Shown here piece after piece: positions 973 to 53,700 of a stretch of 64,000 nucleotides of DNA. The stretch comes from a virus. A program made the translations under genes and the position numbers. The first letter of the stretch is position 1. Every line of letters begins with the position of its first letter. The notes beneath the pieces are model-generated. The model saw only the letters and a list, made by a program, of their open reading frames with translations. It ran no database searches and had not been told where the DNA came from. Where the stretch lies: the IMG/VR virus record IMGVR_UViG_3300011440_000001; one strand, given 5' to 3'.

Positions 973-3044
973 TCCAGCTTCGTACAGTTGTAGCGTCCGA
1001 TGACGCCAGCATTCCCGGCAGTGCCGGCAACGCCGTTGAAGCTGCTGCCGATGCCACCGGCGCCTCCAGCACCGCCGGCCGCCTGGATGGTGCCAACGGT
1101 CGGGATGGTCTTGTAGCCGAGCAGAACCCAGCCTCCGCCACCTCCTCCACCACCACCACCGCCGCCATCATCGAGGCCCAACGAATTGCCGCCGTTGCCA
1201 CCGGCCCCTCCATTGGCTTTGATCGTCCCGCTGTTTACGATGGACATGGCAACGATGCAGGCCACTCCGCCACCCGAGCCGCCGCCGCCACCACCGCCCC
1301 CGGTGTCCCCAGCCCCTTCGGCCGAGCCGGATGTCCCGCCGCGTCCGCCCGTGCCACCCTGGATGACGGTAGCCGTCGCCCCGTGGTAATGGCGCCCAGT
1401 GAGATGCCGCCACTGCCTGAGCGACGCTGCGGTTCCAGCGCCAGAGCCTACATTGATTTGAGTAGTTGAGTCGCCGCCCTTGCCGCCCCCACCACCGTTG
1501 CCGCCCATGCCGGTCGCTGCCGTTGGAGCAGTAGCGAGAGCCCCAACAGATGGGCCAGCGACCCCGGTTGACCCGGTTGTGCCGGCCGTCGAACCTCCGA
1601 CGTTGCGGTTGGTGTTGCCGATCACCCCCACGCCGCCCACGGCTCCTGCTGCGTTCCCGCCGCCGGAACCATCGGCCTTGATCGTCCCATTGTTGGTGAG
1701 CGTCCCGCGCACGAATACCGCGAAGCCATCGAGCGTGAGTGTCACGGCGGCGTTGACCGTGAGCGACGAGTAGTACATATCCTGCGTGAGTGTCGTGTTC
1801 CCAGCGATGGTTACGGCGCCGTCTGAGCCATCCCCGAACAAGAAGTCGAGGAAGTCCGCGGGCCACGTCTCTGCTGTATCTCCGGTATCGACGCTCAACT
1901 GCCGCGCCGCCGTCAGGTCCGATGTGCATGCGATGGTCAGTTGGTGGGAGTCGTTGGAGTCGTTGATCTTGACGGTGTTGAAGGTTGGGTCTGCCGTCGT
2001 GGAAAGGTCCTGATTCGCCGTGACGTCGCCGGTGAGACGGAGAGTACGGTCGGCGTTCGCGAGGTCGAATGTGAGGAATCGATCCGCGGTATGCGCCGGG
2101 CTGCTGAGTGCGCGGAGGCCGAGGATATTCGTCCCCACGCCCGTCGCGTCATCGAAGAAACTCACGCCGGTGAAGAATGCCCCATGCAGCCACGGCTCGT
2201 CCGTCGCGTCGCCGAATATCAGCGCTGTCCCAATGCTGCCGCCACCGCCGGTAACGATGGAACTATTGAATGAGAAGTTAACCCCAGACAAAACTATGGA
2301 TGCCGCCCCGAGGTTGATGGCTGTACCAAGGTTGAGATTGCGCCACCGGATACCCGTAGTCCCCAGGTCTGCGGTATTATTACTCGTCCATCGCAATGCG
2401 CTTGCTTGCAGGATGAGGCGATTCGTATCCTTCAGGTCCCCCGCTGTGTTCAACCACGATGGTATCGAGTCACTCACGGTGGTGACAGGGCTGAGCGCGA
2501 CAGCGCCAATGGCAATGCCCGAGTCCTTGATGAGCTTCCCGGTGATCCCGTCGTAGGTCGCGATGTTGTCTGCGACCGCGACGGCTGGCCCGGTGACATC
2601 GCCTGCGCCCCCGCCGGGGATCCCGAGCAGGGCCTGGGTCTCAGCCACCGTCATGGGCCGGAAGTTTCCGGCATCGCGCCCGAGGACGGTATCCACCGGG
2701 ACAGCGATCTTGACCAGCGAGGAGCCCGCGCTCTGGCGGCCGAACAAAGATGGCTCATCGGCGAGCAGCTTCACGGGACCCGCGCCGTTGGAGCGCGCCA
2801 GGATGTAGTCGGTCTCGGGGCCGTCGTAGTCCAGCGCCGCGAGGGCCGCCTGCTCGGCGTCCGTGAATGCGTTGGTGTTGGGGTTGGACTCGTAGAGGCT
2901 CTTGATCTGGCCGGCGTCCAGACCTGCCACGAGCGGGCTGGGGATCCACTCCTCGATCACATCGTCCCAGACGACAGCTTCTTTGTCGTCCGCGTTGATC
3001 GGGACGCCACCGAGGACGGGGCGTTCCCCGCGCCTGTCGATCAT
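963..3044 (-). CDS. glycine-rich tail fibre / receptor-binding protein
   Basis: 693 aa with long GGxGG and poly-Gly tracts and Asn/Thr/Ser-rich beta-like segments. Last large gene of the structural block. SD GGAG upstream of ATG. Confidence 0.55.
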   Translation of the reverse strand: MIDRRGERPVLGGVPINADDKEAVVWDDVIEEWIPSPLVAGLDAGQIKSLYESNPNTNAFTDAEQAALAALDYDGPETDYILARSNGAGPVKLLADEPSLFGRQSAGSSLVKIAVPVDTVLGRDAGNFRPMTVAETQALLGIPGGGAGDVTGPAVAVADNIATYDGITGKLIKDSGIAIGAVALSPVTTVSDSIPSWLNTAGDLKDTNRLILQASALRWTSNNTADLGTTGIRWRNLNLGTAINLGAASIVLSGVNFSFNSSIVTGGGGSIGTALIFGDATDEPWLHGAFFTGVSFFDDATGVGTNILGLRALSSPAHTADRFLTFDLANADRTLRLTGDVTANQDLSTTADPTFNTVKINDSNDSHQLTIACTSDLTAARQLSVDTGDTAETWPADFLDFLFGDGSDGAVTIAGNTTLTQDMYYSSLTVNAAVTLTLDGFAVFVRGTLTNNGTIKADGSGGGNAAGAVGGVGVIGNTNRNVGGSTAGTTGSTGVAGPSVGALATAPTAATGMGGNGGGGGKGGDSTTQINVGSGAGTAASLRQWRHLTGRHYHGATATVIQGGTGGRGGTSGSAEGAGDTGGGGGGGGSGGGVACIVAMSIVNSGTIKANGGAGGNGGNSLGLDDGGGGGGGGGGGGWVLLGYKTIPTVGTIQAAGGAGGAGGIGSSFNGVAGTAGNAGVIGRYNCTKLEWE

Positions 3045-7146: not shown

Positions 7147-8448
7147 TTACGGCTCTGCGAGGTCCCTGATGCGGCCCCAAGCGTTGCTCTGCTTGATGCC
7201 GATGTTCATGTAGGTCCCGTAGGCCAGCTCGGCCACGTCGCGGTGCGGGAGCCTTTCCCCGCCAGCGACCTTGTCGATGCTGCCCCACGGCTTGACGATG
7301 AACCGGCAGATCTGGGCCAGGTTGCCCATGTAGATCTCGCGCAGCGGCGCCTGGCGATCGATGAAGAACTTCTTGCCGTTCCAATCGATCTCCGTGTAGC
7401 CCAGGTGCAGCTTCGCGCTCAGGTGCTGGACCTGAGGCAGGCCGATCGCGATCAGCTTGCGGCGCTGACCCTTGCCCATGCCGATGAACGTCACTTCCTT
7501 CCCACTGAAGGTCTGGATGGTGTCGTCCATGGACTGCATGAGGTCTTCGGTGATGTTGCGCAGCGTGCCGCCGTTAGCGTCGATGTGACTGCGCCACTCT
7601 GGAGTCGTGGTCCTGTTGATGAACTCCATGATGGCGACCGTGAGGGTGCCGTCATCCACGAGCTGCTGGAGCCCGGTGATTTCGTTGCCCTCGCCGGTGG
7701 CGCCGGTGCCGATGCCCACGTTCTCACGCACCACCACGTTGGTCGCGACCACCGCCGCCTGACCGATCGTGGCCAGGTTGACCGGAGCACCGGCGTTGTC
7801 CACAACATCGAACGTGCGCGCTGCGTAGTTCACGTTGGTGACGTTGAACCCGACATCGAGCGTCGTCTGGTTGGCCGCGCTGTTGCGTGTTACCAGCGTG
7901 GAGGTCCAGAAGTCCACTCGCATCGAGTGACGGATGTACTGCATGTTGCTGTCCGCTGTCAGCGTCACCCTGTCGTTGGTGCCGGCGCCATTGGCGACCG
8001 CCTGGACCGCCCCGAGATTGCCACGACCCGTCCCCCACATCTGGCGAGACATGTCGTTGCGGGCGTACTTCGTCTTGCTCTCGATGGAACGGTCCAGAGC
8101 GTCGAAGAATCCCTTGACACCCTTGGTGATGCTGGCCTCGGTCAGCCCCGTGATCCGCTCGGTGAGGTAGTTCAGCTTCGGGTTGATGCGACCCTGGGCA
8201 CCCCGCAGTGCGATCGAGCCTTCCGGCCCGCCGGGGAGATTGCCGCCTTCGGTCGCAGCACCCACGCTCTCACCGCCGGGGAGCTGCACGGGGAACAGCC
8301 AGTACTTGCCGCCCGAGTCGTAATCCATGGTCTCGTCTCGCTCGAGCAGCTCGAGGAGCATCGGCTCTACGTTCTCCTGCTCCACGATGTAGTTCGCGTA
8401 CCGCTCCTTGGCCATGAAAAGGAGCGCAGTCAGTGTTGACTCAGCCAT
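7147..8448 (-). CDS. major capsid protein (putative)
   Basis: 433 aa, directly downstream of a coiled-coil scaffold-like gene in a TerL-portal-scaffold-capsid order. ATG with SD AGGAG. Confidence 0.6.
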   Translation of the reverse strand: MAESTLTALLFMAKERYANYIVEQENVEPMLLELLERDETMDYDSGGKYWLFPVQLPGGESVGAATEGGNLPGGPEGSIALRGAQGRINPKLNYLTERITGLTEASITKGVKGFFDALDRSIESKTKYARNDMSRQMWGTGRGNLGAVQAVANGAGTNDRVTLTADSNMQYIRHSMRVDFWTSTLVTRNSAANQTTLDVGFNVTNVNYAARTFDVVDNAGAPVNLATIGQAAVVATNVVVRENVGIGTGATGEGNEITGLQQLVDDGTLTVAIMEFINRTTTPEWRSHIDANGGTLRNITEDLMQSMDDTIQTFSGKEVTFIGMGKGQRRKLIAIGLPQVQHLSAKLHLGYTEIDWNGKKFFIDRQAPLREIYMGNLAQICRFIVKPWGSIDKVAGGERLPHRDVAELAYGTYMNIGIKQSNAWGRIRDLAEP

Positions 8449-8452
8449 TTAC

Positions 8453-9445
8453 TTACTCCTGTGGGAGCCTCGACATCTCTCGGCGCGCGGCGTGGAATGT
8501 CGAGTCTTTGCCCGTGAGAGATCTCACCGGCTCTCGCTTCATCCCACCCCCCGTGCCCATTGGAGCCGAAGCATCTCGAAGGACTGATGGCGGGAATTTC
8601 TTCCCCTTCTTCATCAGTTCGCTGACTCCGTTTTCGACCTGTTTGTCCATGCGCGATTTCATCGCACGCCACACCGCGGCCACCTCGGCCCCGACGTTGT
8701 GCCACGTGCTGGTGTCTACCTTGTCCCTGCGGATGACCAGTGCCTTCACGTCCTCCGCCCAATCCGGGTCCACGCCTTCTGCCTTCGCTGCCTGGGAGAA
8801 CAGGCCCTCGAATTGCGAGATGCCTCGCTCGTTCTCCAGGCGTTCGCTTGAGGCGCCGAACTGCTCTTCCATCGCCTCGAGCCGCTCGAGCAGGGGGGCC
8901 GTGGCCGACTCCACTGCCTGCTTGGTCTCCCAGTTGTAGTGCTCCTTGGGGTGCGTCTCGGCATCCCAAGGGTTCTGCGGTGTCGCCTCCGGGCTGGTAC
9001 CCCGGCTCGGCTGCTGTCCACCGCCCGCCGCCAACTGGGCCATGCGCTCGTACCAGATCTGCTCCGACTTCTCGCGCTGCTGCTCCAGCGCCTGTGCGAT
9101 GCGCGCCTCGATGTCATCGGGCTGTGGCGCCGCCGCGGCAGGTGCTTTCTGGAGGCCCTGGATGTACTGGCTGAGAGCTTCCTGTGAGGTGAACTCCTGG
9201 TCGCCGTACTTGAACTTGAAGCTGGCCGGCTGGCTCGGTCCCATCTGCGCCAGCTCCTCCGGGGTGAGATCCGGAAGGTGAACACGCTGCGTTCCAGGAT
9301 CGAAATACCCATCGCCTGGGATTCCAGACATTCCAGGCGCCTGCGATGGATCCGCGCCCGGCGCAGCACCACTTCCCGCACCGGCATCACCGGCCGGGGC
9401 AGGCCCACCACCCATTTCCATCAGCGATTTCGGAATCCACGACAT
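8453..9445 (-). CDS. scaffolding protein (putative)
   Basis: 330 aa, acidic, Gln/Glu/Ala-rich helical protein with disordered Pro/Gly N-terminus. Immediately precedes the capsid gene. SD GAAGGAGG. Confidence 0.55.
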   Translation of the reverse strand: MSWIPKSLMEMGGGPAPAGDAGAGSGAAPGADPSQAPGMSGIPGDGYFDPGTQRVHLPDLTPEELAQMGPSQPASFKFKYGDQEFTSQEALSQYIQGLQKAPAAAAPQPDDIEARIAQALEQQREKSEQIWYERMAQLAAGGGQQPSRGTSPEATPQNPWDAETHPKEHYNWETKQAVESATAPLLERLEAMEEQFGASSERLENERGISQFEGLFSQAAKAEGVDPDWAEDVKALVIRRDKVDTSTWHNVGAEVAAVWRAMKSRMDKQVENGVSELMKKGKKFPPSVLRDASAPMGTGGGMKREPVRSLTGKDSTFHAARREMSRLPQE

Positions 9446-11405: not shown

Positions 11406-13712
11406 CTACACTGCGCCCATTGGAGGTCCGGCTGGGCTCATCTGCTGGCGCGCAGCAGTCGGGCCGACTGTACCACGACCTCCAGGTTTCCCACTGCGGC
11501 CTGGTGGACCGCCGCCCGGAGGCGCCGCACCAGGTGGCGCTCCCGGTTCTTGCGACTCGCCACCGCCAGCGCCTGCAATCCCGCGCGGCACGCCCGGCGG
11601 CGGCTCAGGTTCCCCGCCAGCCGTCGCATCGGCCATGGCCTCCATGCGCGCTTCCTTGAACATCGCCCCCTGCTGCATCATGACCATGCGCTCCTGCAGC
11701 TCGCGCGCGTGCTCCTCGATCCGCATGCGGATGTCTTCAGAGGAGTTCTCAAAGCTGCTCGTCTTCATGTAGTCCACCGTGACCATGAAGTGGATGGCGA
11801 CGTTGTCGTAGGGGCCGATCTGGACTTCCTCGCCGTCTTCGAGCGCGGCGAGCAGGCTCTCGGCCTTCCTGATGTCGCCAGCGCTCTCGTCAACGAACTT
11901 CTCGTCGCCCACTCCCATCAGCTCGCGGATCCTGATGCGGTTGCGCGGGTCCATGATGTTGATGGCCCCCATGCCAACCAGGTCCACGACGGTCTGGGCC
12001 TTGCTGACCTCGTCCTGGATCGCCTTGGGCTCGGCCTCGATGCGGTAGACGTAGTTGTCGCGCATGTCGGAAGCGCGGAAATACCCGAGCGCCCGCCTGG
12101 ATCCGCGTCCTGGCAGGCTCACCCGGCGCGGGACAGTCCACGCAGGCGAGCGCTGGATGGCGTAGAGCCTGTGGGTCTCCATCTCCTCGTGGTGGCGGTG
12201 CAGGTGCGAGACCTTCGGGGCGAAGCGCACCGACGCTCGCTGGATGAGCTGACGCAGCGCGATACCAGCGCTGATCCCCTGAGGCCGCTCCCCGACCAGG
12301 ACTTGCTTGGAGCCGCTGACGCGCTCGAAGAACTCCTGAATGAACATCTGCATGTCGGCGACATACCCGGCGTCGGCCGGGTGCCGCCCCTGGACGAACT
12401 CCGGCTTCTCGCCGCGCGGGCCGGGTTTGTACTTGTAGATCGCCCCGACGTTCGCCATCAGATCCGCCTCGGTGAATGAGCCCTTTGCTTCTGTGGGGGC
12501 GAGCCAGAAGGGCACGGCCTGGACCTTGCGCGCCAGGGTGTTCTGCGCGACCGCGCTCTCGAGGTGCCGGTTCAGGCTGATGAGCGGATGCACCAGACCG
12601 AGCGACCATGGACTGCCAGGAATCGGCGTGTAGCGACTCTGCGTGATGAGGGACTTTGCCAGCGGCAGCGGCCCGCCGTACATGACCCCAGAACCTGCCA
12701 CCAGGAACAGCCGGCCCTCCGGGTACAGCCTCGACGGTGCGAACTCCACGTGGTGGACAACGATCTGCTTCTCGAAGCTGTTGAACTGCCCCGAACCCCT
12801 GTTCCAGGCGCTCGCCATCCCCGAGGAACTGATCTCGTGGAGCATCATCTCCTGCAGGCGCCACTGCCAGCTCGCGAGGGGATGGTCGCCCATGCTGTCG
12901 CCTACGTGGTCCCTGATGTGCGGGTACTGCTCCTTGAGCGCCTCGACACCCTGGAGCACGTGGACGTGGCGCACGCGCGCGTCAGCAGCGCACGTCGCTC
13001 CTGGGTTGAAGAAGATCTGGATCCCCATCAGCAGGCGCGTCTTGGCATCCGCGAGGGTGAGTTTCGCCTTCGTTGTGGAGCCATCGGGCAGCGGGATGTC
13101 GATCTCGACGGCCTCGTTGGCGTCCTCGTCGATCTCGGTGAGGGTGAACATATCGCCGGCAACGACTGTCCCGAGTACCAGCATCTGCTGCAACTCGTCC
13201 ATCCGGTCGGCGTCCCACTTGAACTGGCGGATGCGTTCTGCGACATCGGCGCCGAGGCGGTCGTAGGGGGCGTTGCTATTGGGGATGACGTGGCCCGTGA
13301 CGATGCCCTTGTTGAGGTCCCCGGCCACCGACTCGACCTTCTCGAGGCACAGGTTGATGGTGGGGCGCGGGATGCGCACGGCCTGCTCGTTCGTGACGAA
13401 ACGCATCCTGCGATCATCGACCCGGAGGTGGTGCTGGCCGATGAACCAGAGCCAGGCTTCGATGGTGCGCGCGTAGACGCGCATGAGGTTGGACTGCGCC
13501 CAGCCGTACTGCTTTTTCACCAGCGCGACGATGTCCTGCTCGAGCACCGGGTGGTCTGATTCCAGCAGGCCGCGCTGGATGGCTCCCTGGAGGCCCCGGT
13601 TGAGGTAATCCGAGTCGATGTGGCTCGAGCCAAGCTGCTGGGCAGAGTCGAGCACCGCGGGCGCGCGCGTGGGGACCGGGGGCATACCGCGAACGACGCT
13701 GGGTGTGGCCAC
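11406..13712 (-). CDS. portal protein (putative)
   Basis: 768 aa, immediately downstream of the terminase nuclease-domain gene. Acidic Gly/Pro-rich C-terminal tail. GTG start with SD AGGAG. Confidence 0.6.
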   Translation of the reverse strand: MATPSVVRGMPPVPTRAPAVLDSAQQLGSSHIDSDYLNRGLQGAIQRGLLESDHPVLEQDIVALVKKQYGWAQSNLMRVYARTIEAWLWFIGQHHLRVDDRRMRFVTNEQAVRIPRPTINLCLEKVESVAGDLNKGIVTGHVIPNSNAPYDRLGADVAERIRQFKWDADRMDELQQMLVLGTVVAGDMFTLTEIDEDANEAVEIDIPLPDGSTTKAKLTLADAKTRLLMGIQIFFNPGATCAADARVRHVHVLQGVEALKEQYPHIRDHVGDSMGDHPLASWQWRLQEMMLHEISSSGMASAWNRGSGQFNSFEKQIVVHHVEFAPSRLYPEGRLFLVAGSGVMYGGPLPLAKSLITQSRYTPIPGSPWSLGLVHPLISLNRHLESAVAQNTLARKVQAVPFWLAPTEAKGSFTEADLMANVGAIYKYKPGPRGEKPEFVQGRHPADAGYVADMQMFIQEFFERVSGSKQVLVGERPQGISAGIALRQLIQRASVRFAPKVSHLHRHHEEMETHRLYAIQRSPAWTVPRRVSLPGRGSRRALGYFRASDMRDNYVYRIEAEPKAIQDEVSKAQTVVDLVGMGAINIMDPRNRIRIRELMGVGDEKFVDESAGDIRKAESLLAALEDGEEVQIGPYDNVAIHFMVTVDYMKTSSFENSSEDIRMRIEEHARELQERMVMMQQGAMFKEARMEAMADATAGGEPEPPPGVPRGIAGAGGGESQEPGAPPGAAPPGGGPPGRSGKPGGRGTVGPTAARQQMSPAGPPMGAV

Positions 13713-13718
13713 GTCCGG

Positions 13719-14060
13719 CTACTCCTGTGGACTACCGAAACCGAACCCTGCCTCCGGGTCGCCCGGCTGGCCTCTCTCCAACTCTCCGAAGACTCTCTCC
13801 GCGACCGCGTGAGGATCCGATCCCGCGGTGTTGCCGTTGCGCTGTGCCTCGGCCCGCGCCGCGGCACCTGCCACCAGTCGGTCGCGCTCGTCGGTAAGCT
13901 GCGCGATGATGCGGCTGTACCCCACGCCGTGGAACTGCACGAGCAGGGCGTGGAGTTCCTTCACGCGCGCGCTTTCGGCCTCGAGCGCCTTCGTGACCAG
14001 CGCGATCGCCTCCTTGCAGATGGCGTGGTCGCACCGATGTGGCTCGCCGAACAGATTCAT
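13719..14060 (-). CDS. small hypothetical protein between TerL and portal (113 aa; start trimmed)
   Basis: ATG at 14060 preceded by AGGGGAGG. Overlaps the TerL-C stop. Confidence 0.4.
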   Translation of the reverse strand: MNLFGEPHRCDHAICKEAIALVTKALEAESARVKELHALLVQFHGVGYSRIIAQLTDERDRLVAGAAARAEAQRNGNTAGSDPHAVAERVFGELERGQPGDPEAGFGFGSPQE

Positions 14061-15286
14061 GCCGCCTCCCCTATCCAATCGGACTTTTTCTCTGCATCGC
14101 CGCGCTGCAATGCGGCCAGTTGCTGGCTGGCCTCGTTGAGCGCCTGCATGATCTCCTGTTGCCGCACTTTGCGCCAGTCCGTCAGCGGGTTGAGCACCCG
14201 ATCGCCGAGTCTCGCCGGTGTCCAGTCCTCGCTGAGCATGTACTTATTGGCGTCCCAGGTGTGGTTGTCGTAGTCCTGGATCGTCTCTGGGGCGTTGGAG
14301 TTCGGATCGGGGTTCTCCTGCCACTTGAGGTTGGCGATTTCGTGTCTCTGCGCCGCCATGTTGCTGCAGAAATAGCCCCCGAACAGCATGTAGCCCTCCG
14401 GCTTCGGGTCCAGGCCAAGCACCATGAGTGTGTCTGCGCTCAGGCTCGGGAAGTGCCGGCGCATGAAGACGGTCTTCCTGAAATGCTCGATCTCGATGGT
14501 CTCGCGCCCGCGCCTGCGCGGGGGGCGGCACGAGATGGCGTCGGGCTCGGCCTGGAGCTGCTCGAGCAGGTTGGTGCGCGGCGCCTCAGCACCGAAGCTG
14601 ATGAGCTGGCGCTGCTTGGAGGCCGGGTCGATGAAGATGTCATCGAAGACCTGGTTGCCCATCTTCTGATGGATGGTGTACTTCACGGCCGCCGTGCCCG
14701 TGAGATAGCGGTGGTCCTCATCGGTCTCGATCCGCAGGTCATAGGCGTTGCGGATGTAAAGCTCGTCGTACCAGACGATGATTCCCTCGGGGCTGATGGC
14801 GGCGAACGTCACGGCGAAGGGGTTCACGCTCGCCGGGTCGATGCCCATGCGCCTGGACCAGTAATCGGGGATCGGGATGCGCGGCTGGATGATGTGACTG
14901 ACCGATGGGTGCAGGTCGTCCTTGTTGATGAACTCGGGGAAGACCTTCAGGCCCTTGTGGATGGACCAATCGAGTTCCATGTAGCGCGCCCAGTCGTGCC
15001 CATCGATCCCCCCGGGCATGTGCGAGGCGGCTTCCGAGCGCCATTCATCCGATCGCTTCGTCGGATCCGCGGTGTAGTGGATCTCGGCGACTGCGAAGTG
15101 GTTGATGTTGTTCTCCCACGCCCTGACGCCGATGCACGGCGACTCCGGGTTCTCGTGCGCCGCCTTGCCGCTGCCTTCGGGAGAGAATCCAATGGGTGGC
15201 CGCTGCTCGAGGCGAGGGATCAGCATCTGTCGCAGGACATCGGACGGAGAGGGAGCGCTCGGTTGCGAGAGACTGTCCGTGCTCAC
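14057..15286 (-). CDS. terminase large subunit, C-terminal part (lid + RNase-H-fold nuclease domain only)
   Basis: Nuclease motif G-I-D-P-A ... FAVTFAAI ... GIIVWYDELYI, typical of the first catalytic Asp region of TerL nucleases. No Walker motifs. GTG start with weak SD, and the first ~40 aa are low complexity. Confidence 0.55.
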   Translation of the reverse strand: MSTDSLSQPSAPSPSDVLRQMLIPRLEQRPPIGFSPEGSGKAAHENPESPCIGVRAWENNINHFAVAEIHYTADPTKRSDEWRSEAASHMPGGIDGHDWARYMELDWSIHKGLKVFPEFINKDDLHPSVSHIIQPRIPIPDYWSRRMGIDPASVNPFAVTFAAISPEGIIVWYDELYIRNAYDLRIETDEDHRYLTGTAAVKYTIHQKMGNQVFDDIFIDPASKQRQLISFGAEAPRTNLLEQLQAEPDAISCRPPRRRGRETIEIEHFRKTVFMRRHFPSLSADTLMVLGLDPKPEGYMLFGGYFCSNMAAQRHEIANLKWQENPDPNSNAPETIQDYDNHTWDANKYMLSEDWTPARLGDRVLNPLTDWRKVRQQEIMQALNEASQQLAALQRGDAEKKSDWIGEAA

Positions 15287-15349
15287 GCTCGCAGCCTACA
15301 CAGCAATGGCACTTGAGTCAACGAAGCCCTCCTGCTACCGTGGAAGAGC

Positions 15350-16093
15350 ATGAGCGGCACCAACGGCAACAGCGCGGTGACGGTCGAAGAGGAAACGTCG
15401 GCAGAAGAAGGCAGCGTTGACCTCGACGCCGTAGTTGCCACCGTCGAGCCAGAAGACCCCCTCAAGCCCTTCCCCACGCCCTACAAGGGCAAGTTCCGCC
15501 GCGTCAGCGCGCAGATGTACGCACAGCGTGTGTTCGCCGTGCTCGCCAATCCCGCTTTCGATGACCTGAACATCGGGCAGAAAGCTGAGCATGCGGATAT
15601 GAAGGCATCCACGTTCAGCCGCTACTGCAGCGACGAGATGATCTACGCGGTGATGAAGTTCCGTAGGCGCCGGCTGATGGCGGAGATCCCGGCGATCGAC
15701 AAGGCACTCGTCAAGCGGGCCAAGATGGGCAGTCTCGGGCACATCGAACTGGCCTACGAGCGGCTCGAGGGGTACCATCGCGACCAGGCTGCGGCAGGCG
15801 TGGACGAGACCACGCGAAAACTCGCCGCCCAGGCATGGGGGATGCTCGATGCCAGCACCAGGGAGACCATCAGCGACGCAGTCGCACGCTCCTGGAGCAA
15901 CCGACACCGATCACCAGACGCTGGTGGCGACGATGGCGGCGCTCCAAAGGGCGAGCCTCGACCCGCAGTGGGCGATTCTGAACTCGGGCCTGTTCCACAC
16001 CTGGGACAAGGCAGACCCGAATCACCCGTACAAGCCACTGCCGAACTGGATGGATTACCTTCGGTTCGTGGTCCACTGGACCCACTCGCATGA
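15350..16093 (+). CDS. putative terminase small subunit / DNA-binding protein
   Basis: ATG with SD GGAAGAG. N-terminal ~170 aa look protein-like with a helix-turn-helix-like segment. The C-terminal ~60 aa are low complexity and overlap the TerL-N ORF in another frame. Confidence 0.35.
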   Translation: MSGTNGNSAVTVEEETSAEEGSVDLDAVVATVEPEDPLKPFPTPYKGKFRRVSAQMYAQRVFAVLANPAFDDLNIGQKAEHADMKASTFSRYCSDEMIYAVMKFRRRRLMAEIPAIDKALVKRAKMGSLGHIELAYERLEGYHRDQAAAGVDETTRKLAAQAWGMLDASTRETISDAVARSWSNRHRSPDAGGDDGGAPKGEPRPAVGDSELGPVPHLGQGRPESPVQATAELDGLPSVRGPLDPLA

Positions 16094-16637
16094 CCGGGTA
16101 GCGTTCGCCAAGTCGCGCGACGTGATGCTCACCCTCACCGTGAGCATGTACTGCCTCTGGTACTGCCTCTTCCGGTCGGGCACGGAAGCCATCGCTATTT
16201 CCGACAAGGCCGAGAAGGCCGAGCACAACCTGGGCCGCATCTGGACCGGGTATCGCTCGATGCCACAGATCGCGCGCCACCTGATGCCCGCCTCCCAGCG
16301 CCTCGGCACCTCCGGCCAGGCCCGCATCATCACCATGGACGAGCGGGTGTCCTTCATCCCAGGCCAGGCGGATTTCAAGGGGTCGCGGCTCGAAGCGATC
16401 GCCTCGGGGCCTGACAAGATCCAGGAATACCACCCCACCATCGTCTTCATCGACCAGGTGGACACCACGAGGCTGCTGCGCGACACCCTGGCCGCCATCT
16501 TCCCGGTCATGAAGCGGGGCACCAAGATCATCATGGTGGGGTGCCCGCATCCGGGTGTGTGGCGGGAGATCTGCTACGACATGGACGAGATGAGTTCGGT
16601 CAGGCTTTCTGGTCCGGCTGAGGTGGTGGCGGCGTAG
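15849..16637 (+). CDS. terminase large subunit, N-terminal ATPase domain only
   Basis: Deviant Walker A (A-K-S-R-D-V-M-L-T, lambda gpA-like K-S-x-R-x-G). Walker B I-I-T-M-D-E. Coupling motif I-I-M-V-G-C-P. The ORF stops right after motif III. SD GGGGGA upstream of ATG 15849. Confidence 0.5.
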   Translation: MPAPGRPSATQSHAPGATDTDHQTLVATMAALQRASLDPQWAILNSGLFHTWDKADPNHPYKPLPNWMDYLRFVVHWTHSHDRVAFAKSRDVMLTLTVSMYCLWYCLFRSGTEAIAISDKAEKAEHNLGRIWTGYRSMPQIARHLMPASQRLGTSGQARIITMDERVSFIPGQADFKGSRLEAIASGPDKIQEYHPTIVFIDQVDTTRLLRDTLAAIFPVMKRGTKIIMVGCPHPGVWREICYDMDEMSSVRLSGPAEVVAA

Positions 16638-17400
16638 GGGCTTTGCGCACCACCCCGCAGAGCCTCATGGCCTCTCGGCACGTCGGGCGGCGGCAGTCGC
16701 GCACGAACTGCTTGTGTCCGGTGAGCCGATGCACGCTCACGAAGTATTCGTAGAGCGCGACCCTGGCGCGCTGGAGGGATTCGCCGGCCAGGTCGTTGAG
16801 GTCGGCCACGCGATCGATGCACGCGCTCTCGATGATCCCCGCCAACACGCGGTACAGTTCCTTGATGTTCTGGTCCTGGGAGTATTCGCGGCGTTCCTCG
16901 TGCCGTAACTGCATGCCCTTGCGCTGCTTGCGGTTGCTATAGCGTTTGTAGGCCAGCCGGTCGGAGCCGACGATGTTGGTGAGATACGACTGGGTGAGGT
17001 TCGCCACCATATCGGCGCGCACGTTCCACAGGCTGCGCGCGAGGTCCTCAGGCTCGACTTTCCAGTGCCGCAGCGTCCAGCCAACCAGGCGGCACAGGCG
17101 CTGCTCGAACTGGCACATCTGGTACATGAAGCGCGCGCGATCCCGCCGGTCCAGCATCAGGTAGTCGAAGAGCTTCTCGGCAACCTCCGGCCCACCGCAC
17201 CTGGTGTGGTAGGCGATGGCCTCGAGATAGACGGGCGAGATGCCGAGTTCGTGGGCCAGATATTTGATGGTGAAGCCGCGCAGGTTGATGAGCCGCGCGA
17301 TCTCGCTCTTGCCGAGCGTCACGCGCACGCGCTGCCTGCCTTTCTTGAAGCCCCCCGGCACCGGAGGCAAGCCGTCAAGATCCAGGATGTTCTCGCTCAA
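16600..17400 (-). CDS. helix-turn-helix DNA-binding protein
   Basis: 266 aa with an HTH-like segment (IKYLAHELGISPVYLEAIAY). Last gene of a six-gene minus-strand operon. Confidence 0.45.
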   Translation of the reverse strand: MSENILDLDGLPPVPGGFKKGRQRVRVTLGKSEIARLINLRGFTIKYLAHELGISPVYLEAIAYHTRCGGPEVAEKLFDYLMLDRRDRARFMYQMCQFEQRLCRLVGWTLRHWKVEPEDLARSLWNVRADMVANLTQSYLTNIVGSDRLAYKRYSNRKQRKGMQLRHEERREYSQDQNIKELYRVLAGIIESACIDRVADLNDLAGESLQRARVALYEYFVSVHRLTGHKQFVRDCRRPTCREAMRLCGVVRKAPTPPPPQPDQKA

Positions 17401-17605
17401 TTTCGACCATCCTCGTCATCTCGTGGATCGGCTGGGCCATCCAGGCGTAGCCGTTGAACTCGATGCGCGTCTTTCTCCCGTTGACGTACCTGCAGGCGCC
17501 CTTGGGCACAGGCATTTTCTTGAGGATGACCTCGCCACCGCAGTACCGCGGCCAGTATGTGGCCTCCGAGCGCGCCAGGCAGTACGGGCAGATGGCGATG
17601 ATCAC
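17375..17605 (-). CDS. small zinc-ribbon protein (76 aa)
   Basis: CPYC ... C ... C spacing. Start overlaps the upstream stop. Confidence 0.4.
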   Translation of the reverse strand: MIIAICPYCLARSEATYWPRYCGGEVILKKMPVPKGACRYVNGRKTRIEFNGYAWMAQPIHEMTRMVEIEREHPGS

Positions 17606-17799
17606 CCGACTGGGTCTGCGATCTTCCGAAGCACCGGCCGCCCCTGGATGACCGTTATGGAGCGCACCCCTTCATCTGCGGCGGCGAGTGCGCAGTGCTC
17701 CCTCCAGACAAGAACAGCGTCAGCCAGGCTGTCGGCCTCGACGTAGTCTTTCACCGCACCAACACTTATTTTGTTCCAGATCACTTGGAAAAGCATCAT
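17602..17799 (-). CDS. small hypothetical protein (65 aa)
   Basis: ORF coupled to its neighbours by overlapping start/stop. Confidence 0.3.
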   Translation of the reverse strand: MMLFQVIWNKISVGAVKDYVEADSLADAVLVWREHCALAAADEGVRSITVIQGRPVLRKIADPVG

Positions 17800-17975
17800 C
17801 CCCCCTGTTCGTCTTCGTCGTCCCAGGTTTCCTCAGAGCACGGGTCGTTGGGGTCGCAGTTCACGCACGGTTCTTCACCGTGCTCCTCGTGGTCGCACTC
17901 CCTGCAGATCCCGTGGCCGCATTTGTCGCACACGTCCTCGAGATCGTGGTTGTCGCAGTCGTTGCCGTTGTCCAT
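17796..17975 (-). CDS. small acidic Cys-rich protein (59 aa; start trimmed)
   Basis: 8 Cys in CxxC/CxC patterns and many Asp/Glu. ATG overlaps the vWA stop (TGAgATG). Confidence 0.4.
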   Translation of the reverse strand: MDNGNDCDNHDLEDVCDKCGHGICRECDHEEHGEEPCVNCDPNDPCSEETWDDEDEQGG

Positions 17976-17976
17976 C

Positions 17977-18723
17977 TCACTTGCTGGTGTGCTCAGCGCT
18001 CCTCTTGCCGGGCCAGGTCGTGCTGTCTTGCGCGGGATCGACGTTGACGACGGGCGGCACGGTGGTGTTGGTGACCGGAGGGTATTGCTCCGCACCCGTC
18101 TCGGCGCCTTCGTCATGCTCGCGGCCGTAGAACGAACTCACCTGCTGGCCCCCGCCGCGCAGAAACGACTCGGTAGAGGCCGACATTCCGCGGACTGCGC
18201 GGATGGTGCCTTGCGGCGTGCCGTGGAAGTTCATGACGTTGCCCACGGGAATGCCCATGGCCATGCCGACTGCCCAGGCGTCCTGGTTCGCGCCGAGGTA
18301 CGTGAAGGTCCAGTTCTTGGTGGCCTCCTTCTCGGCGATGAGCGCCTTGAGCGAGTGGAGAGTGTGCTCACGGCTGGAGTTCTCCTCCCCATCGGTCAGC
18401 ACGCAGAACAGGACCTTGGTGTGCACGCAGATGCGCTTTTCGGTGTCGCGGATGCTCTCGAACACCGCGTCGTGGAGCGCCGTGCCACCATCGGGCTGGT
18501 AGCTCAGCAAGGTGAGCGGATGGCAATTCTTCACCGGCTCGCCGTTGTAGCGGGTCTCACGCGCCGTGTTGAACTGCACGAGCGTCATGCCAACGTCCGG
18601 GTACGACTTCTGGATCGAGCCGAGGTACTCGTTGAACGCCGAGATGGTCGCGGCCTTCTTACTCTCCATCGAGCCAGAGCGATCGAGCACGACGACGATT
18701 GTGATGTTCGGATCGGGAATCAT
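17977..18723 (-). CDS. von Willebrand factor A (vWA) domain protein
   Basis: MIDAS motif V-V-V-L-D-R-S-G-S-M near the N-terminus, with downstream T and D residues at expected spacing. Confidence 0.6.
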   Translation of the reverse strand: MIPDPNITIVVVLDRSGSMESKKAATISAFNEYLGSIQKSYPDVGMTLVQFNTARETRYNGEPVKNCHPLTLLSYQPDGGTALHDAVFESIRDTEKRICVHTKVLFCVLTDGEENSSREHTLHSLKALIAEKEATKNWTFTYLGANQDAWAVGMAMGIPVGNVMNFHGTPQGTIRAVRGMSASTESFLRGGGQQVSSFYGREHDEGAETGAEQYPPVTNTTVPPVVNVDPAQDSTTWPGKRSAEHTSK

Positions 18724-20204: not shown

Positions 20205-20280
20205 CGGGGTGTAGCGTAGTGGCCAACGCACTCGCTTTGGGAGCGAGGGACCGGAGGTTCGACTCCTCCCACCCCGACCA
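20205..20280 (+). tRNA. tRNA-Pro (anticodon TGG), CCA encoded
   Basis: Hand-folded cloverleaf. 7-bp acceptor CGGGGTG/CACCCCG. D-arm GCGT/ACGC. Anticodon stem CTCGC/GCGAG with loop TTTGGGA. T-arm GGAGG-TTCGACT-CCTCC. Discriminator A plus CCA. Confidence 0.85.
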
Positions 20281-27542: not shown

Positions 27543-27559
27543 CTGAGCATTTGGGGTTT

Positions 27560-27646
27560 CCCGGCGTGGTGGAATGGCAAACACAGCGGCCCTTAGGTGC
27601 CGCTGGGCTGTAATGGCCCATGCGGGTTCGACTCCCGCCGCCGGGA
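27560..27646 (+). tRNA. type-II tRNA-Leu(UAG)-like gene with 8-nt anticodon loop (CCUUAGGU); no encoded CCA
   Basis: Perfect 7-bp acceptor CCCGGCG/CGCCGGG. 3-bp D-stem. 5-bp anticodon stem GCGGC/GCCGC with an 8-nt loop. Long variable arm GGGC…GCCC. T-arm GCGGG-TTCGACT-CCCGC. Confidence 0.45.
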
Positions 27647-27684
27647 TCAAACGCATCAATTCGGCAAAGGGGGGGGGCGGGTAG

Positions 27685-36561: not shown

Positions 36562-36668
36562 CGGAAGGTGGCGTGGTGACTGTCGCGGTGCCGCGTTTCG
36601 CAGAGGGCGCGGGGCTCGGACCTGCCCACGAGCATGCACACGCCCGACAGTCACCACCAGGAACATGA

Positions 36669-36744
36669 TGCGGGGAGGTGCCCTGGTGGGCATGGATGGC
36701 TCATAACCATCACGTGGTCGGTTCGATTCCGACCCCCGCTACCA
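36669..36744 (+). tRNA. tRNA with anticodon CAU (Met or Ile2-type), CCA encoded; unusual U1·U72 mismatch
   Basis: Hand-folded. D-arm GTGC/GCAT. Anticodon stem GATGG/CCATC, loop CTCATAA. T-arm GTCGG-TTCGATT-CCGAC. Acceptor positions 2-7 paired. Confidence 0.65.
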
Positions 36745-47237: not shown

Positions 47238-47734
47238 CCAGCGCCTCCAGGAAGTGCTGGCGTTGAGGTCACGAAGTTACCGGCAATGCGGTCGAGCTTG
47301 TCGGCGAGCAACTTGTACTGCGCGAACGGATCCAGGGGCTTGCCGTCGATGCTGCTCAGCTCGAAGTGTACCGGGTCGCCCCAGTCAGCACCGCAGCGCA
47401 AGCCGATCTCGCGCGCCAGATCGATCACGCGCTGTTGCTTGGCGTTCTTGTCGGCGCGGTCCTTCGCGTTGGTGATGCCGGCGTCGAAGGCTGCGGCTTT
47501 GCCGTTGTAGAAGGGATGGTGACGCGACAGGCCCACGGGGGCAGGCTGCGCGACGACACCGTACTTGGTGCGCGCCACGCCTGGGTTGCGCCTCCAGGTC
47601 TCGTAGAGCACTGCCTGGTAGCCGTACCCACGAGCGCCGGATGTCTTGGCGATGCTGATGCCTTCGGCGGCGGCGCGGGATTCCAATTCGTTAGCTTTTG
47701 TACCGAGTTCAGGGAGAAGGTCTGCTACGTCCAC
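47234..47734 (-). CDS. endolysin, peptidase M15 (VanY / L-Ala-D-Glu peptidase)-like
   Basis: Zn-ligand-like motifs SRHHPFYNGKAAAFD and DPVHFE. GTG with SD AGGAGGG. Overlaps the 3' end of the giant gene. Confidence 0.5.
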   Translation of the reverse strand: MDVADLLPELGTKANELESRAAAEGISIAKTSGARGYGYQAVLYETWRRNPGVARTKYGVVAQPAPVGLSRHHPFYNGKAAAFDAGITNAKDRADKNAKQQRVIDLAREIGLRCGADWGDPVHFELSSIDGKPLDPFAQYKLLADKLDRIAGNFVTSTPALPGGAG

Positions 47735-50700
47735 GTCCGCGCCCTCCTGCGCCGTACATCTGCTGCAGTCCGGGGCGGACCCCCTGGAGGCCGATTGGCT
47801 GGCGGTATCCTACCGCACTTCGGGCCAGCGCGTCTGCCTCTGCCCGAAGCCGCTCTTTCTCTTCGCCTCCCGCCACGTGCTCGCGCTTCCTGAGGCGGTT
47901 TACCTGCTCGACAGTGTTGCGCAGCCGCGGAAGGGCCTTGAGTGCATCGACGTGCTCCTCGCGGAACCTCTTGGCCCGCACCTCGTCGCGCATCTCGCCG
48001 GTGGTGTAGAACGTGAGAGTCGCGTGTGCATTGGCGGCGTCCATGTACTGCTCGTAGAGCTGACGCACCGGCTCGGTGTTGAACGGCGTGACGTAGTGGA
48101 ACACCCTGCCGATGCCGGTGGTCCCAGGGCTCAGGTCGTAGCGCTCCGGCGTGATCCCCGCCTTGGCGCCAGCGAGTTCTGCCCAGTCGATGATTTCCGT
48201 TCCAAGGCCGGGGACGTACCCAGAGATGAGGTTCTCGACCTTCGCAGGCGAGGTCAGCATCTCAATCTCCTTGAGCCCTGGCAGTGAACCCATCAGATCT
48301 GCGATGGCCTTGGCGGTGTTGGAGGTGCTGACGTAGTACTGGGCCTCTGGGAGCCGGCGCTCCTGTGACCCGCTGACGATCTTGGTGTTGGAGTAGCCCC
48401 TCCAGTTGGCGTAGTTCTGGATGATGGGGGCCAGCAGCGTCGGGGTTGGGTCCGGTATGCTGCGCCACATCTCCGCCGCCCACGCCTCGAACGCCCCGGG
48501 ATCTTCGTGGCGTGCCCACTCGAAGAGCGCCTCGAGCGATGTCGCGAACGCCAGGCCGAACTCGTGAGGCTTCGGCATCTGGTACCAGCCGCCGTTGGGC
48601 AACGGGATCATCCAGTACCTGGTCCTGATGTGGATCGGGATCGAGTCGAAGTCCTTCTCGCGCTCGAGAGCGTGGCGCAGCAGCACCAGGGCGATCGTCG
48701 GCAGGGTGATGCCCAGCACCGCGTTTCTCCAGGCGGTCGAGCGCGTCTTCGGGTCGGTGAAGGTATCTACGGACATCTTCCAGCCGAGCACGTTTGGTTT
48801 GAAGAACGCGCTGGTGACGGCCCACTTCTTGGCCCACGCTCCGCCCTGGGCGAAGTCGATCGTCACCATCCTGCCGGCGTAGCCCACGCGGATCATGTCG
48901 TCTTCCGTGGCGATGGTATCGGCGCCCATGGCGCGCATCTCGGTGAGCCGCGGGGCCATCTCAACAGCCATACCGAACTGCCGCATCACGTCGAGGACCC
49001 CGTTCGCCCAGCGCACCGGGGAAGTCGGATGCAGAGCGACGAGCTGCCGGACCTTGGCCATCTTTCCCCTGGCTGCCGTGCTGTAGGGCTTCGAGCTGAT
49101 GTGCTTGAGGATGAACTTCTCCATCTGCAGCGGGTCCAGCGACAGGAAGTGCGCCATGCTCGCGTAGGTTCCAGGCCCGCGCACCAGCAGTTCATCCATC
49201 TCGGTAGGGGTGATGCTGTTCCATCTGGCGACGAGCCCCTTGACCTTGCTGTGCTTGTCGATCCGCTCGAGGATCGAGCGGGCGAAGTCGGTCCCGATCA
49301 GCGCCATCCCAAAGTTCTTCGGGACATGGCGGATCTTGGCATCTTTCTGGGTCCTGACCTTCATGGCGAAGAGGTCGCGGGCCTGCCTCGCCCAGAACGG
49401 CGGCCACAGGACAATGCTCTCGCGCATGATGCGGGCGGCCGGCCCGAACAGCCAGCTCAGGATGGACACGTCCCCGCCGTCCAGGCCGAGCATCGCCTGG
49501 TAGGTCTGCTCCTCGCTCTCGCGGAACTGGAAGTACTTCTTCTTGCCACCGATCCACGCCGAGATGGTGCGCTTGCGAGGGTCGCGGCTGCTCGGCATCC
49601 AGAAGGTGAGCACGTCATCGAGCAGGTCAACATCGCCGCCGATCATATCGACCAGTTCTTTGGGCGACACTCCAAGGGCCTCGGCGATACGCGCGAAGGG
49701 GATCTTCGCCGGCTCAACCGGCGGTGGGACCTCGTTGCCCCAGCGCGCTACCTCCGGGTGGCTGCGGGCGAGCCTGATGAGCAACTGCCCCACGCGGTTG
49801 CCTTCCACGGACGCCATCAGATCGCGAGTCTGCTTGAGGGTGCTCTGAATCGGCGAGACGATGGGCCACACACCGCCTTCACGGCGGTAGATGCCCTTGG
49901 CGCGCCCTGCGAACTTCGCCGCGCCGCTTCCAGAAGCCTGGTCGGCCTCGATGAACTCCCTCCAGCGCATCAGCGGGGTGTAGACCTCGTTCATGTTCTT
50001 GATCCTGATGTACTGCGCGCGCGTGAGGAACCCCGCCTTCCAGCGGAACCGCAGCAGCCAGTTGTTGTACTCCTGGTACTTGTCGTATGCCTGCTTCATG
50101 GCGTCGTCAACGGCGTGGCGGGCCAGGACGGAATCGACCTCCTTGCCGGTGAGCCCGGTGTAGCGCTCGGGGCTCCATCCCCGCGTGCGCCTCAGGTAGT
50201 CGGCCTCGCGCGCCACGAAGTACAGGTCGATCTCGGTGATGGCGCGGTCGGCCACCGACCCGAGCGCTTGCTTCAGGCTGATGCCACGGCCCACCTCGTA
50301 GCTGGCCCCGTACTCCCAGGTGTCGGTCAGGATCGCGCGCATCGTCAGGCCATCTCGGGCCGCCTGTGTCGTGGCGATCATCCTGAGGTCCTCGGTGGGG
50401 TCGGGCACTGGCGCGCCCTCTCTCACCAGGGCATCGCCCAGCTTCTTGACGCTGTCGAGCGAGTCCAGGAAGCGGTACATGAACTTCTGCCACTTGGTGG
50501 GGAATGGGTTGTCGCCGGGGTAGTGCAGGTGGGTCATGGCGCGGGCGTACTCCGGGCTGGCGTCCCATGCCTGCTGGACGGAACGCGCCCAATCGACCAT
50601 GTCCTGAAGCTCTGGGAACTCGCGCACGGTTGCCGCCCAGATGGCAGAGAGTGTCGGCGCGCGGCGCTGCGCCTCCGCCGGGTCCTCCACCGTCAGGCGC

Positions 50701-53700
50701 GCCCACTCGGCGAACGCCTCCGAATAGATCGGCGTGCCCTTGGAGACCGCGTAGTCGCGCAGCAGCGCCCGGATCTCGGCCTGGATGCGCTTGCGCACAA
50801 GGCGCCGATCCGCAGGCTTCCCGCCGGTCGCGCGCTGCATGTCCGCGATGATGGCCTCGACGGCCATGTGCATCGTCTGGGCGAACTTGTTCGGGCTGCC
50901 CCCGTAGATCATCATCTGGAAGTGGTGGCCCAGGTCTTCGTGCGCGAGCGTGCCGAACGTCGGCGCCCCCTTGGTCCTGGTGAGTTGCGTGCCGGGGTGG
51001 TAGTCGGCCAGGGCACGCGCGTCGTTGCGGATGGCGTTGATGCGGATGTTGCGCTGCATCTTGCGGCTCATCTCGATGGCGAACTGGATCCGGCCCTTGA
51101 GTTCGCTCTTCTCGGATTCAGTGAACCGCCGCGGCAGCCACTGGCGCACCGCGTGCCACAGGGAGAACGGGTCCACACCGCGGAACGCCGAGCGCTTCGT
51201 CCTGGTCGGCCACTTCACCGCCGCCGCACCGGGGAGATCTGGCGGGAACGACGTGGGCGACTGCCCCGATGGCTGCTGAGGCGGCATGGGCGCCCGGCTG
51301 GCGGCAGCCCCCCTCTTCGGCTTGAGCCCGAACGCCTTGCCCGCGCCCCCAGGCGGCGGGGTCGTGTCGTCCCTGACGTTGGGAGCGATGCGGAACGTCC
51401 GGGCGAAAGACGCCAGGTGCGCTCCGGGCACGTGCCACTGCTCGCCGGAAGCGTTCGCCGCGGCATAGATGTCCACCTCGCGGATGCCGTTGCCGGCGGC
51501 CCACTCCGACAGCTCCGGGCGGTCCTTCATGACGGCGTTGCCGATGAGGTACTGGCCCTTGGTGTTGCGCCGCATGACCCACTGCTTGCCGGCTGCGCCA
51601 ACCTTCACCATGGGGACCTTCTCGCCGGCATCGAGGAATGACTGGAGGGTATCTGGTGTCGCGGCCAGGTCGATGATGTTGAACACGCGGGCGAGGCGGT
51701 CCCGGCGGCCGGGCGGCACGCGGTGCCCGCTGATGATGGCGTCTGAGGTCTCGATGGTCACGTAGTGGCGCATGTCGCGCTGCTCGAGGACCTGGCGCAC
51801 CCTGTTCATGTGGTTCAGGTCGCTCGACATGACGATGCCAGAGACCACGCTGAAATGGTGGCTCTCCTTGCTGACCCATCCCGACTCGCCGCCCTTGGCC
51901 CCAGGCACCCAGGCGAACATGTGCCCGGTGGCAACGTCGTGGATGGTGAGGTCTTCGGCCAGCGGCATGGACCTGAGGATCCGCCCCTTGCCGCGCTCGG
52001 TCTGGAGTCGCTCGCCATGGTCGAGCGCCATCTTGTACTCAACGGCGTAGCGCTTCATGAACATGTCGTGCAGGTCGTTGGCGACCTTGTGTGGCATCAG
52101 CAGCAGGTCGTTGAGGTACTCGCGCGAGCCGGCCCGCACGTCGAGCGCAGTGTGGGCGATCTTGTTGTTGTGGTAGAAGCCCTTGTTGAGGAACAGGCTC
52201 TTGTAGTCCGGGGGGATCCGGTCCCAGATGTTCTGGACGACATTGCGCCCGATGCGGTGGTCTATCTCGTGAGTGCTGAGGTTCGAGGTCGTCACCACAT
52301 CGGCCTGGCCGCGGCTCGTCACACCAAGCATCCTGAGCCTGTTGGCCACGGTGGTGAGGAACTTCAGCTCCGACCGGAACGGCATCTTCACCAGCGCGAT
52401 GATGGGGCTGGTGATCTGGTTGGCGCGGTCAACGCGCCCCATGCGCTGGAAGAACTTCGTCGCCGACCAGTCGTAGTCGATCGGCAGGAACACGCGCTGG
52501 CGATGGCCTGGCCCTGAGTCATAGACGTGGTGGGCGTCGAGCCCCGCAGAGCCAGCGTCCGAGATGATGAGGATGGGTTTTTCGCCCTTCTGGAAGGAAT
52601 CGAGCATGGCGATGCGCTCGTTGAGCGAATGGATCTGCCCCGTGATGATGGCGACCTTGTTCTCGCCGAAGCGCTCCTGGAAGGTCTTCACGATGTCGCG
52701 AAGCTGCGGCATGGTCTCGAGTTCGTCGGCCAGCATCTGCTTTGCGACCTGGGCGTCGGAGATCGTGTCGCCCTCTTTATCCATGTCGTTGATGAGCGAG
52801 ATCGCGGCGTCGAGCCGGCCGGCGCGCTCCTCGGCCACGGCCCCAGCCCCTCCCTTGGCTGCACCCTCGACGATGCTCACCACGATGCTCTTGGGGATCT
52901 CGCCCTCGGGGACGTTGTCCAGGTAGCCCTGGACCATGTCGAGGGTTGGGTCGAGCCTCCACTCCGCCATCATGCGCTTGACGTGGTTGGTGAGCTGCGC
53001 GAGCACCAGCATGCGGCTGCGGGCTGCCGATTTGCTGAAGCTCTTGCCCGTGCGCTTGTCCTTCGTGAACTCGGTCGCGGTGGTGTAGATCCGCCGCACA
53101 AAGTCAACGTAGGTGTCGAACACCCCCATGCGCTCCTCGGCCACCTCTGGCTCGTGGACCTGGTACTGCTGGCCGCCCTTCCACATCGACCGCGCGGCCC
53201 ACTTGCCCTTGCCCTTCCACTCGCGGACGAGCTGCTCCATCTCCGGCACGGTGATGGAGGTGTCGCCCGTGCTGGCGGCGCCTGCGACTCCTTGCGTGTT
53301 GCCCTGCTGGTCGGCATGGCCCGTGATCCAGTTGGCGTAGTTGTCGAAGTCCTGCGCCAGCGGGCCGAACTCGCGCAGGCCGACGTAGACGCGCAATTCG
53401 TCGGGGTCCTCGGCGGGGGTCGCCGTGAAGTAGAAGATCTGGGAGTTCTCGTCATCCAGCACCGCGCGCTGGAGGTTCATGAACGACTCAGCGCTGGCGG
53501 CAGGCGTTGTCCCGTAGACGTTCTTCAGCTCGTGGACTTCGTCGGCAATCCACACCACTGGGCCGGGGCTGGTATTGATCCAGTGCGCCATGGCCTGCTC
53601 GAACCCCACCATGTGGACCGGGATATTGGGGATGGCGATGAGGCGCACGTCCGTGGGGAACGGCGTCCATGGGTCCGATGGCCGGTCGGTCTTCGCCGCT

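Follow-up and report, generated by a model that had tools for sequence, protein, structure and literature searches.

A phage large terminase probably assembled from two polypeptides whose genes lie on opposite strands

Textbooks present the large terminase subunit (TerL) as the single-chain motor of tailed phages and herpesviruses, and its gene is the most used phage marker. In the IMG/VR record IMGVR_UViG_3300011440_000001, of which a stretch of 64,000 nucleotides (the window) was analyzed, TerL is probably encoded as two polypeptides that act as one rebuilt two-chain enzyme, the split being ancestral and the cassette that carries one of the genes having been inverted. The first open reading frame (ORF), TerL-N (15849..16637, plus strand), is the ATPase core of TerL. 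The other, TerL-C (14057..15286, minus strand), is, as judged from sequence, the rest of the protein, comprising the end of the ATPase core, the lid subdomain, and a nuclease of the RNase H-like type. A recount of the ORFs confirmed both at the coordinates and on the strands given in an earlier, sequence-only reading of this DNA. That reading had TerL-N and TerL-C facing away from each other across a 63-bp spacer, which is wrong; the ORF that faces TerL-C is a third one, resembling a small terminase subunit (TerS).

The fold of TerL-N is that of a terminase ATPase. Its AlphaFold (AF2) model has a predicted local distance difference test score (pLDDT) of 80 and a predicted template modeling score (pTM) of 0.79, and a Foldseek search of the PDB returns the ATPase domain of T4 gp17 as the best match (E 7e-10, template modeling score 0.63), followed by the TerLs of P74-26, HK97, T7, D6E, and Sf6; the top 17 matches are all TerLs. 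At the sequence level, TerL-N and gp17 share no more than about 16-17% identity. TerL-N also matches two PHROG families of TerL, at 8e-7 and 4e-3. Pfam gives no match for TerL-N, TerL-C, the TerS-like ORF, or the portal protein.

The Walker A motif of these enzymes is recognized by a conserved arginine at position 3-4 and a terminal Ser/Thr (PMC6379665). In TerL-N the motif is KSRDVMLT (residues 88 to 95; window 16110-16133), and K88, R90, and T95 are invariant in 149 relatives with a readable Walker B. Motif III is IIMVGCP, which appears as VGTP or VSTP in relatives and aligns with TTT285-287 of gp17; TerL-N ends about 25 residues past it. The sequence-only reading had assigned the same Walker A and motif III and had noted the stop soon after the latter, all of which stands. 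Its Walker B, IITMDE, does not: that stretch is unconserved (IIRFLP or IIAFNR in relatives), and the real Walker B strand is IVFIDQ. Two stand-alone relatives of TerL-N, P0026 and P0044 (284-285 residues), have an N-terminal insertion with two CxxC pairs that looks like a zinc ribbon and is absent from the TerL-N of the window.

The Walker B strand of TerL-N (residues 198 to 203; residues 198 to 205 correspond to window 16440-16463) ends in D202-Q203, where an aspartate followed by the catalytic glutamate is expected. All 10 members of the clade to which the window belongs have this D-Q pair, whereas D-E is found in 135 other relatives, split and fused alike. In lambda terminase every substitution of this glutamate is lethal, including E179Q, which leaves 0.2-0.7% of the ATPase activity (PMC6379665). 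Two other positions set the D-Q clade apart. The +3 residue of Walker B is acidic in 10 of its 10 members versus 9 of 135 elsewhere, and the residue after the Walker A arginine is aspartate in 9 of 10 versus 11 of 135. It is plausible that the catalytic carboxylate has been relocated in the D-Q clade, to Walker B +3, to the residue after the Walker A arginine, or to both.

TerL-C could be identified through fused relatives. A profile made solely of C-terminal regions taken from 36 fused TerLs, which pass both Pfam Terminase_6C and Terminase_6N (P0023, for example, has Terminase_6C at 9.8e-9), matches residues 48 to 358 of TerL-C with an E value of 3e-46. The sole match in a PDB search with the TerL-C family profile is the SPP1 G2P nuclease, at the DNHTWDA motif, and seven of the eight members of the TerL-C family weakly match the TerL family phrog_6672. 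Four acidic residues do not vary: D150, E175, D340, and D345. The identity of TerL-C depends on such sequence comparisons because its AF2 model failed and is unusable (pLDDT 42). In addition to the nuclease, TerL-C keeps a strongly conserved strand, 'F.V.E.HYTADP..R...W', and a lid segment, both of which are parts of the ATPase domain in fused relatives.

Joined end to end, the two proteins read as one. A concatenated profile of TerL-N and TerL-C finds a fused protein of 604 residues, P0017, with an E value of 6e-33, and hhalign aligns the profile with P0017 (99.8%) colinearly over 511 columns, TerL-N followed by TerL-C. P0017 is itself a TerL (phrog_2, 1e-20). In its locus (L008) the fused gene precedes a small gene and then a Pfam P22_portal gene, the same order as TerL-C, small ORF, and portal in the window.

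The place of the cut can be located from both sides. TerL-N ends past the helix that follows motif III (...VGCPHPGVWREICYD), and homology of TerL-C begins at the strand ...FAVAEIHYTADP. In the fused relative P0037, the Pfam Terminase_6N domain extends to residue 299 while the part equivalent to TerL-N ends at about residue 245, and in the alignment with gp17 the break falls near residue 300-304, between motif III and the lid. Thus, it is the ATPase domain itself that is cut, not the hinge between ATPase and nuclease. The lid of T4 gp17 comprises residues 314 to 357 (PMC6379665). In fused relatives the break region is a poorly conserved linker. The sequence-only reading had divided the enzyme into an ATPase half and a nuclease half; the nuclease was correctly recognized, but TerL-C also carries the last segment of the ATPase core and the lid, and the division at the domain boundary is mistaken. 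ATPase and nuclease are not found on one polypeptide here, being encoded by two ORFs on opposite strands, and in the close homologues they are all separate too.

Seven related loci (L001-L007) are 42-63% identical to the window. The database homologues of TerL-N (n = 7; 189-280 residues) and of TerL-C (n = 8; 349-408 residues) are separate proteins without exception, with identities down to 42-43%. Invariant alignment columns number 56 in TerL-N and 83 in TerL-C, and both halves are, from these alignments, under strong purifying selection. Wherever the contig reaches, TerL-C, a small gene, and the portal gene follow one another on one strand (the contig of L002 breaks off right behind TerL-C). 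The opposite strand carries an island, which comprises the TerS-like ORF and TerL-N in L001, L002, L003, L005, and L006; the L004 contig reaches the TerS-like ORF but stops short of TerL-N, and the L007 contig ends 0.7 kb upstream of TerL-C. The island varies in length from 1.3 to 3.9 kb and contains zero to five extra genes. Since these diverged relatives keep the same layout, the window is taken to encode a working two-piece enzyme and not a broken gene. A genuine two-piece, divergently expressed terminase was one of the two options that the sequence-only reading had left open, and it is supported by the separate homologues of each half and by the divergent layout kept in the related loci.

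The neighborhood is conserved as well. The six relatives that reach the small-gene slot all have a gene of 90-173 residues there, as does the fused relative L008, and the 119-residue ORF of the window has tblastn matches in L001 and L004. The portal protein of the window is 49-69% identical to the products of 726-751-residue genes in the same slot of the relatives. Within the inverted island of L004, between TerL-C and the TerS-like gene, lies an ORF of 146 residues (1928-2368, minus strand) with an HNH-like Cys/His pattern (CQIC...HVDH...CEDCH), as read by eye.

The split itself reaches far beyond the lineage of the window. An exhaustive HMMER search with the TerL-N family profile gave 660 matches at E <= 0.001. 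Among the 157 closest 50%-cluster representatives, 109 stop at the same end point (0-35 residues past) and are 172-360 residues long, and 45 are fused (414-854 residues). In one context, a TerS gene (DUF2280) is followed by TerL-N and then, with a 4-nt overlap, by a gene of 373 residues with a faint Terminase_6C match. A survey of a subgroup covering 80 IMG/VR loci found 44 with a fused gene, 15 with a split on the same strand and gaps of 30-2950 nt, two with the halves on opposite strands, and 19 without TerL-C in the stretch examined. Two loci, L010 and L011, have TerL-N, three to four small genes, TerL-C, and portal on a single strand. On the same strand, the partner gene may thus adjoin TerL-N or lie 0.3-3 kb downstream of it. 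L010 (NCBI GCA_001003965.1, LCQD01000002.1) is a contig of 40.7 kb that is binned as 'Candidatus Gottesmanbacteria' and looks like a phage. Apart from its split TerL, it encodes two N6/N4 DNA methyltransferases and has an ORF of 650 residues in the portal slot; nearly all of its genes lie on one strand.

In the two opposite-strand loci of the subgroup, TerL-N and TerL-C are 4.8-7.2 kb apart (L059, 2395-3282 minus and 7785-8567 plus; L072, 68-934 minus and 7749-8567 plus). With about 70% guanine plus cytosine (GC) and a canonical D-E Walker B, they represent a second opposite-strand lineage. A crude neighbor-joining tree places the window clade among split forms and needs at least 33 changes between split and fused, a number that is not to be trusted. 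A broad alignment of 30 sequences was too diverse for locus scanning. Because the same split point is widespread among relatives with both genes on the same strand, the split should be older than the inversion, and flipping the cassette of the window restores the gene order of these same-strand relatives. Probably, then, the TerS/TerL-N cassette of an already two-gene terminase was later inverted. Whether all of this reflects a large, undescribed clade of uncultured tailed phages that have a two-chain TerL cut inside the ATPase fold, with genes free to drift apart or invert, and with a lineage, that of the window, in which Glu changed to Gln and the carboxylate was perhaps relocated, is a proposition to which we would give an even chance.

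A working model of the two-chain enzyme can be proposed. TerL-N and TerL-C would associate non-covalently to give one rebuilt TerL protomer. The N-terminal strands of TerL-C would dock onto the TerL-N sheet and complete it, with the lid closing over the ATP site, and the packaging motor on the portal would consist of five of these heterodimers. The TerS-like protein would be co-expressed with TerL-N. As for the route to the present arrangement, an ancestor that was already split would have undergone inversion of the TerS/TerL-N cassette in the window lineage, leaving the halves to be read divergently from a short shared intergenic region. The spacer of 15287..15349 presumably holds the signals for this divergent expression.

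Several points weigh against this proposal. The association of the two chains, their stoichiometry, and ATP hydrolysis with glutamine in place of glutamate are matters that we only infer, and the poor monomer model of TerL-C (pLDDT 42) lends them no help. Because glutamine replaces the catalytic glutamate and E179Q is lethal in lambda, the ATPase competence of TerL-N cannot be assumed. A scan of the spacer found no promoters for the divergent units; it used a σ70-like consensus, which may not be that of the host, and is uninformative. Finally, there is no cultured relative: a tblastn search of 50,697 GenBank phages gave no match for TerL-C and one match, at 25% identity, for TerL-N. Scans of IMG/VR and GTDB genomes with the TerL-C family alignment confirmed no relatives.

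Other explanations of the two ORFs have to be set against the two-chain enzyme. TerL-N might be a stand-alone packaging ATPase, in the manner of the nuclease-free gp16 of phi29, and TerL-C a separate, portal-proximal nuclease, which would suit genes that may sit kilobases apart on different strands and so do not depend on co-translational assembly. However, the cut falls within the Pfam Terminase_6N domain, TerL-C keeps the conserved ATPase-domain strand and the lid, and the two families co-occur wherever enough contig exists; independent products are unlikely. The other option raised by the sequence-only reading was a recent inversion that broke terL and left a decaying, packaging-defective prophage. 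Its geometry was correct, in that flipping 15300..16640 gives a tidy colinear operon with the TerL-N stop about 16 nt from the TerL-C start. Yet the same layout is found in loci only 42-63% identical, an identical genome has been assembled about 12 times at about 66.4 kb, and the same-strand split relatives show a break older than the inversion. Conservation of the layout refutes a recent disabling event, the strong constraint on both halves contradicts it, and we leave it hardly any probability.

It might also be supposed that the halves are rejoined after expression, either by split-intein protein trans-splicing or by RNA trans-splicing of intron halves. Split inteins within TerL genes are known from metagenomes. 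Inteins and group I introns are also documented in TerL genes (PMC7156551; PMC12880540). At the junction, however, the extra sequence amounts to about 65 residues versus about 43 in the linker of a fused relative, and the surplus of only about 22 residues is too small to accommodate an intein. In TerL-C the conserved Asn is followed by H, D, or G, never by Cys, Ser, or Thr, and the intergenic spacer is only 63 bp. As to introns, the one Rfam match in the window at the gathering threshold is a tRNA, and nine related loci have no match. Rejoining is accordingly a very improbable explanation. Less probable still, to the point of being negligible, is a programmed invertible DNA switch captured in one of its orientations, for which the geometry alone speaks. 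A repeat search of 13500-18000 found no inverted repeats at the cassette junctions and gave chance-level matches only, bearing out their reported absence, and no recombinase gene was called beside the cassette. In addition, the orientation is the same in every relative with a readable cassette, although its length ranges from 1.3 to 3.9 kb, and even in the flipped state the halves would be separated by a stop codon and 16 nt. To the extent that sequence can show it, both splicing and DNA switching are excluded.

The assignment of the third ORF as TerS, made in the sequence-only reading, is weakly supported. Its position upstream of TerL-N, kept in six relatives, is typical of a small terminase subunit. 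Searches of Pfam and the PDB gave nothing convincing, and the homology consists of matches to phrog_24579 ('terminase small subunit') by four of seven family members, with a best E value of 6.5e-4 and 0.097 for the window copy. The conserved core of the ORF runs from 15350 to about 15940, and the last 50 or so codons look like an out-of-frame translation of TerL-N. The two ORFs overlap by 245 nt in different frames. In six of six genomes the TerS-like frame stays open for 117-196 codons into the TerL-N ORF, and TerL-N is always +1 relative to it. A programmed +1 frameshift that fuses the TerS-like ORF to TerL-N was considered, given that this frame relation is conserved across genomes. The conserved part of the TerS-like ORF ends about where conserved TerL-N begins (near 15933). 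The overlap is probably incidental, because that frame is generally poor in stop codons in these GC-rich genes, and a frameshift fusion is the less likely reading.

The features of the locus are collected in Table 1. The TerS-like ORF and TerL-N form a two-gene plus-strand island, since the surrounding block is on the minus strand. The minus-strand gene at the far side of TerL-N marks the distal edge of this inverted cassette; the two genes converge and overlap by 38 nt at their 3' ends (16600..16637). A search of the related loci found no homologue of that flanking gene.

Table 1. Positions of the terminase genes and their neighbors in the window
Feature	Position	Strand	Remarks
Portal protein gene	11406..13712	-	Follows TerL-C and the small ORF directly; matches phrog_156 (PHROG portal family), 1e-4
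Small conserved ORF between TerL-C and portal gene	13719..14078	-	119 aa
TerL-C (ORF A)	14057..15286	-	Maximal ORF 409 aa; database calls begin at ATG 15226 (389 aa)
Divergent spacer, TerL-C start to TerS-like start	15287..15349		63 bp; 123 bp with the TerL-C start at 15226
TerS-like ORF (ORF C)	15350..16093	+	247 aa; start 63 bp from the TerL-C start
TerL-N (ORF B)	15849..16637	+	262 aa; true start possibly ATG 15933
Flanking gene with weak helix-turn-helix match	16600..17400	-	Pfam HTH_3, E 0.016, under the curated cutoff

The window is most of a tailed-phage genome of about 66 kb. Its GC content is about 64%, and minus-strand genes at about 0-23 kb and 45-64 kb enclose a region of plus-strand genes. 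Among JGI, Logan, and ENA sequences, 12-13 contigs encode proteins identical to TerL-N and TerL-C; the two longest measure 66,453 and 66,471 bp. Since identical proteins recur on so many contigs from three sources, the two-strand layout is not a one-off misassembly. Elsewhere in the window, an ORF of 3618 residues (47709-58565, minus strand) combines Pfam LPD38 (2.8e-32) with the C-terminal domain of a Strawberry-notch-type helicase (6.9e-25), and is a 'large polyvalent protein' of the kind known on phages and plasmids. At 20205-20280, 27559-27648, and 36667-36744 on the plus strand, ARAGORN reports tRNA-Pro(TGG), tRNA-Met(CAT), and an odd, 90-nt tRNA-like element with a four-base anticodon (TTAG); the Rfam gathering score confirms only the first.

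Among known systems, the TerL of the window is like the T4 gp17 type (Terminase_6N plus Terminase_6C) in its fold, motif order, K-S-R Walker A, motif III, lid, RNase H-like nuclease, and portal neighbor. It differs in consisting of two polypeptides encoded on opposite strands and in having D-Q instead of D-E in Walker B. The gp16 protein of phi29 is a complete packaging ATPase without a nuclease domain, and phi29 needs no terminase nuclease. TerL-N is likewise a packaging ATPase polypeptide without a nuclease domain; unlike gp16, it has no lid of its own, and its partner gene carries both lid and nuclease.

Phage terL genes annotated as several ORFs have been described in the Jug phages and in cyanophage Mic1 (PMC12880540; PMC7156551). 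There, however, a single strand carries all the pieces, which are transcribed together and joined again by splicing of the RNA or of the protein. The window has neither ribozyme nor intein, its halves lie on opposite strands, and each has its own start and stop. In the Parabacteroides phage phiPDS1, two coding sequences represent two parts of TerL (PMC10773633). Those are adjacent, though, and were reported as a possible codon-table or assembly issue (PMC10773633). No published description of a natural two-chain or opposite-strand TerL was found in the full-text literature, whose coverage is incomplete, so that an earlier description is possible.

A two-chain TerL bears on how the motor is thought to work. 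The D-Q Walker B challenges the view of the catalytic glutamate as irreplaceable. Current models of mechanochemical coupling include, for example, an 'arginine toggle', in which the Walker A arginine switches back and forth between the catalytic Glu and a lid Glu (PMC6379665). The natural cut, which separates the ATP-binding core from the lid and nuclease, falls at the very interface where these models place the coupling, and phages with a split TerL would offer a ready-made system for testing motor coupling in trans. There are also consequences for the reading of phage genomes. Half-length TerLs go unrecognized by Pfam. They will be scored wrongly, as truncated genes or defective prophages, and phylogenies and completeness estimates that rely on TerL will be distorted by them.

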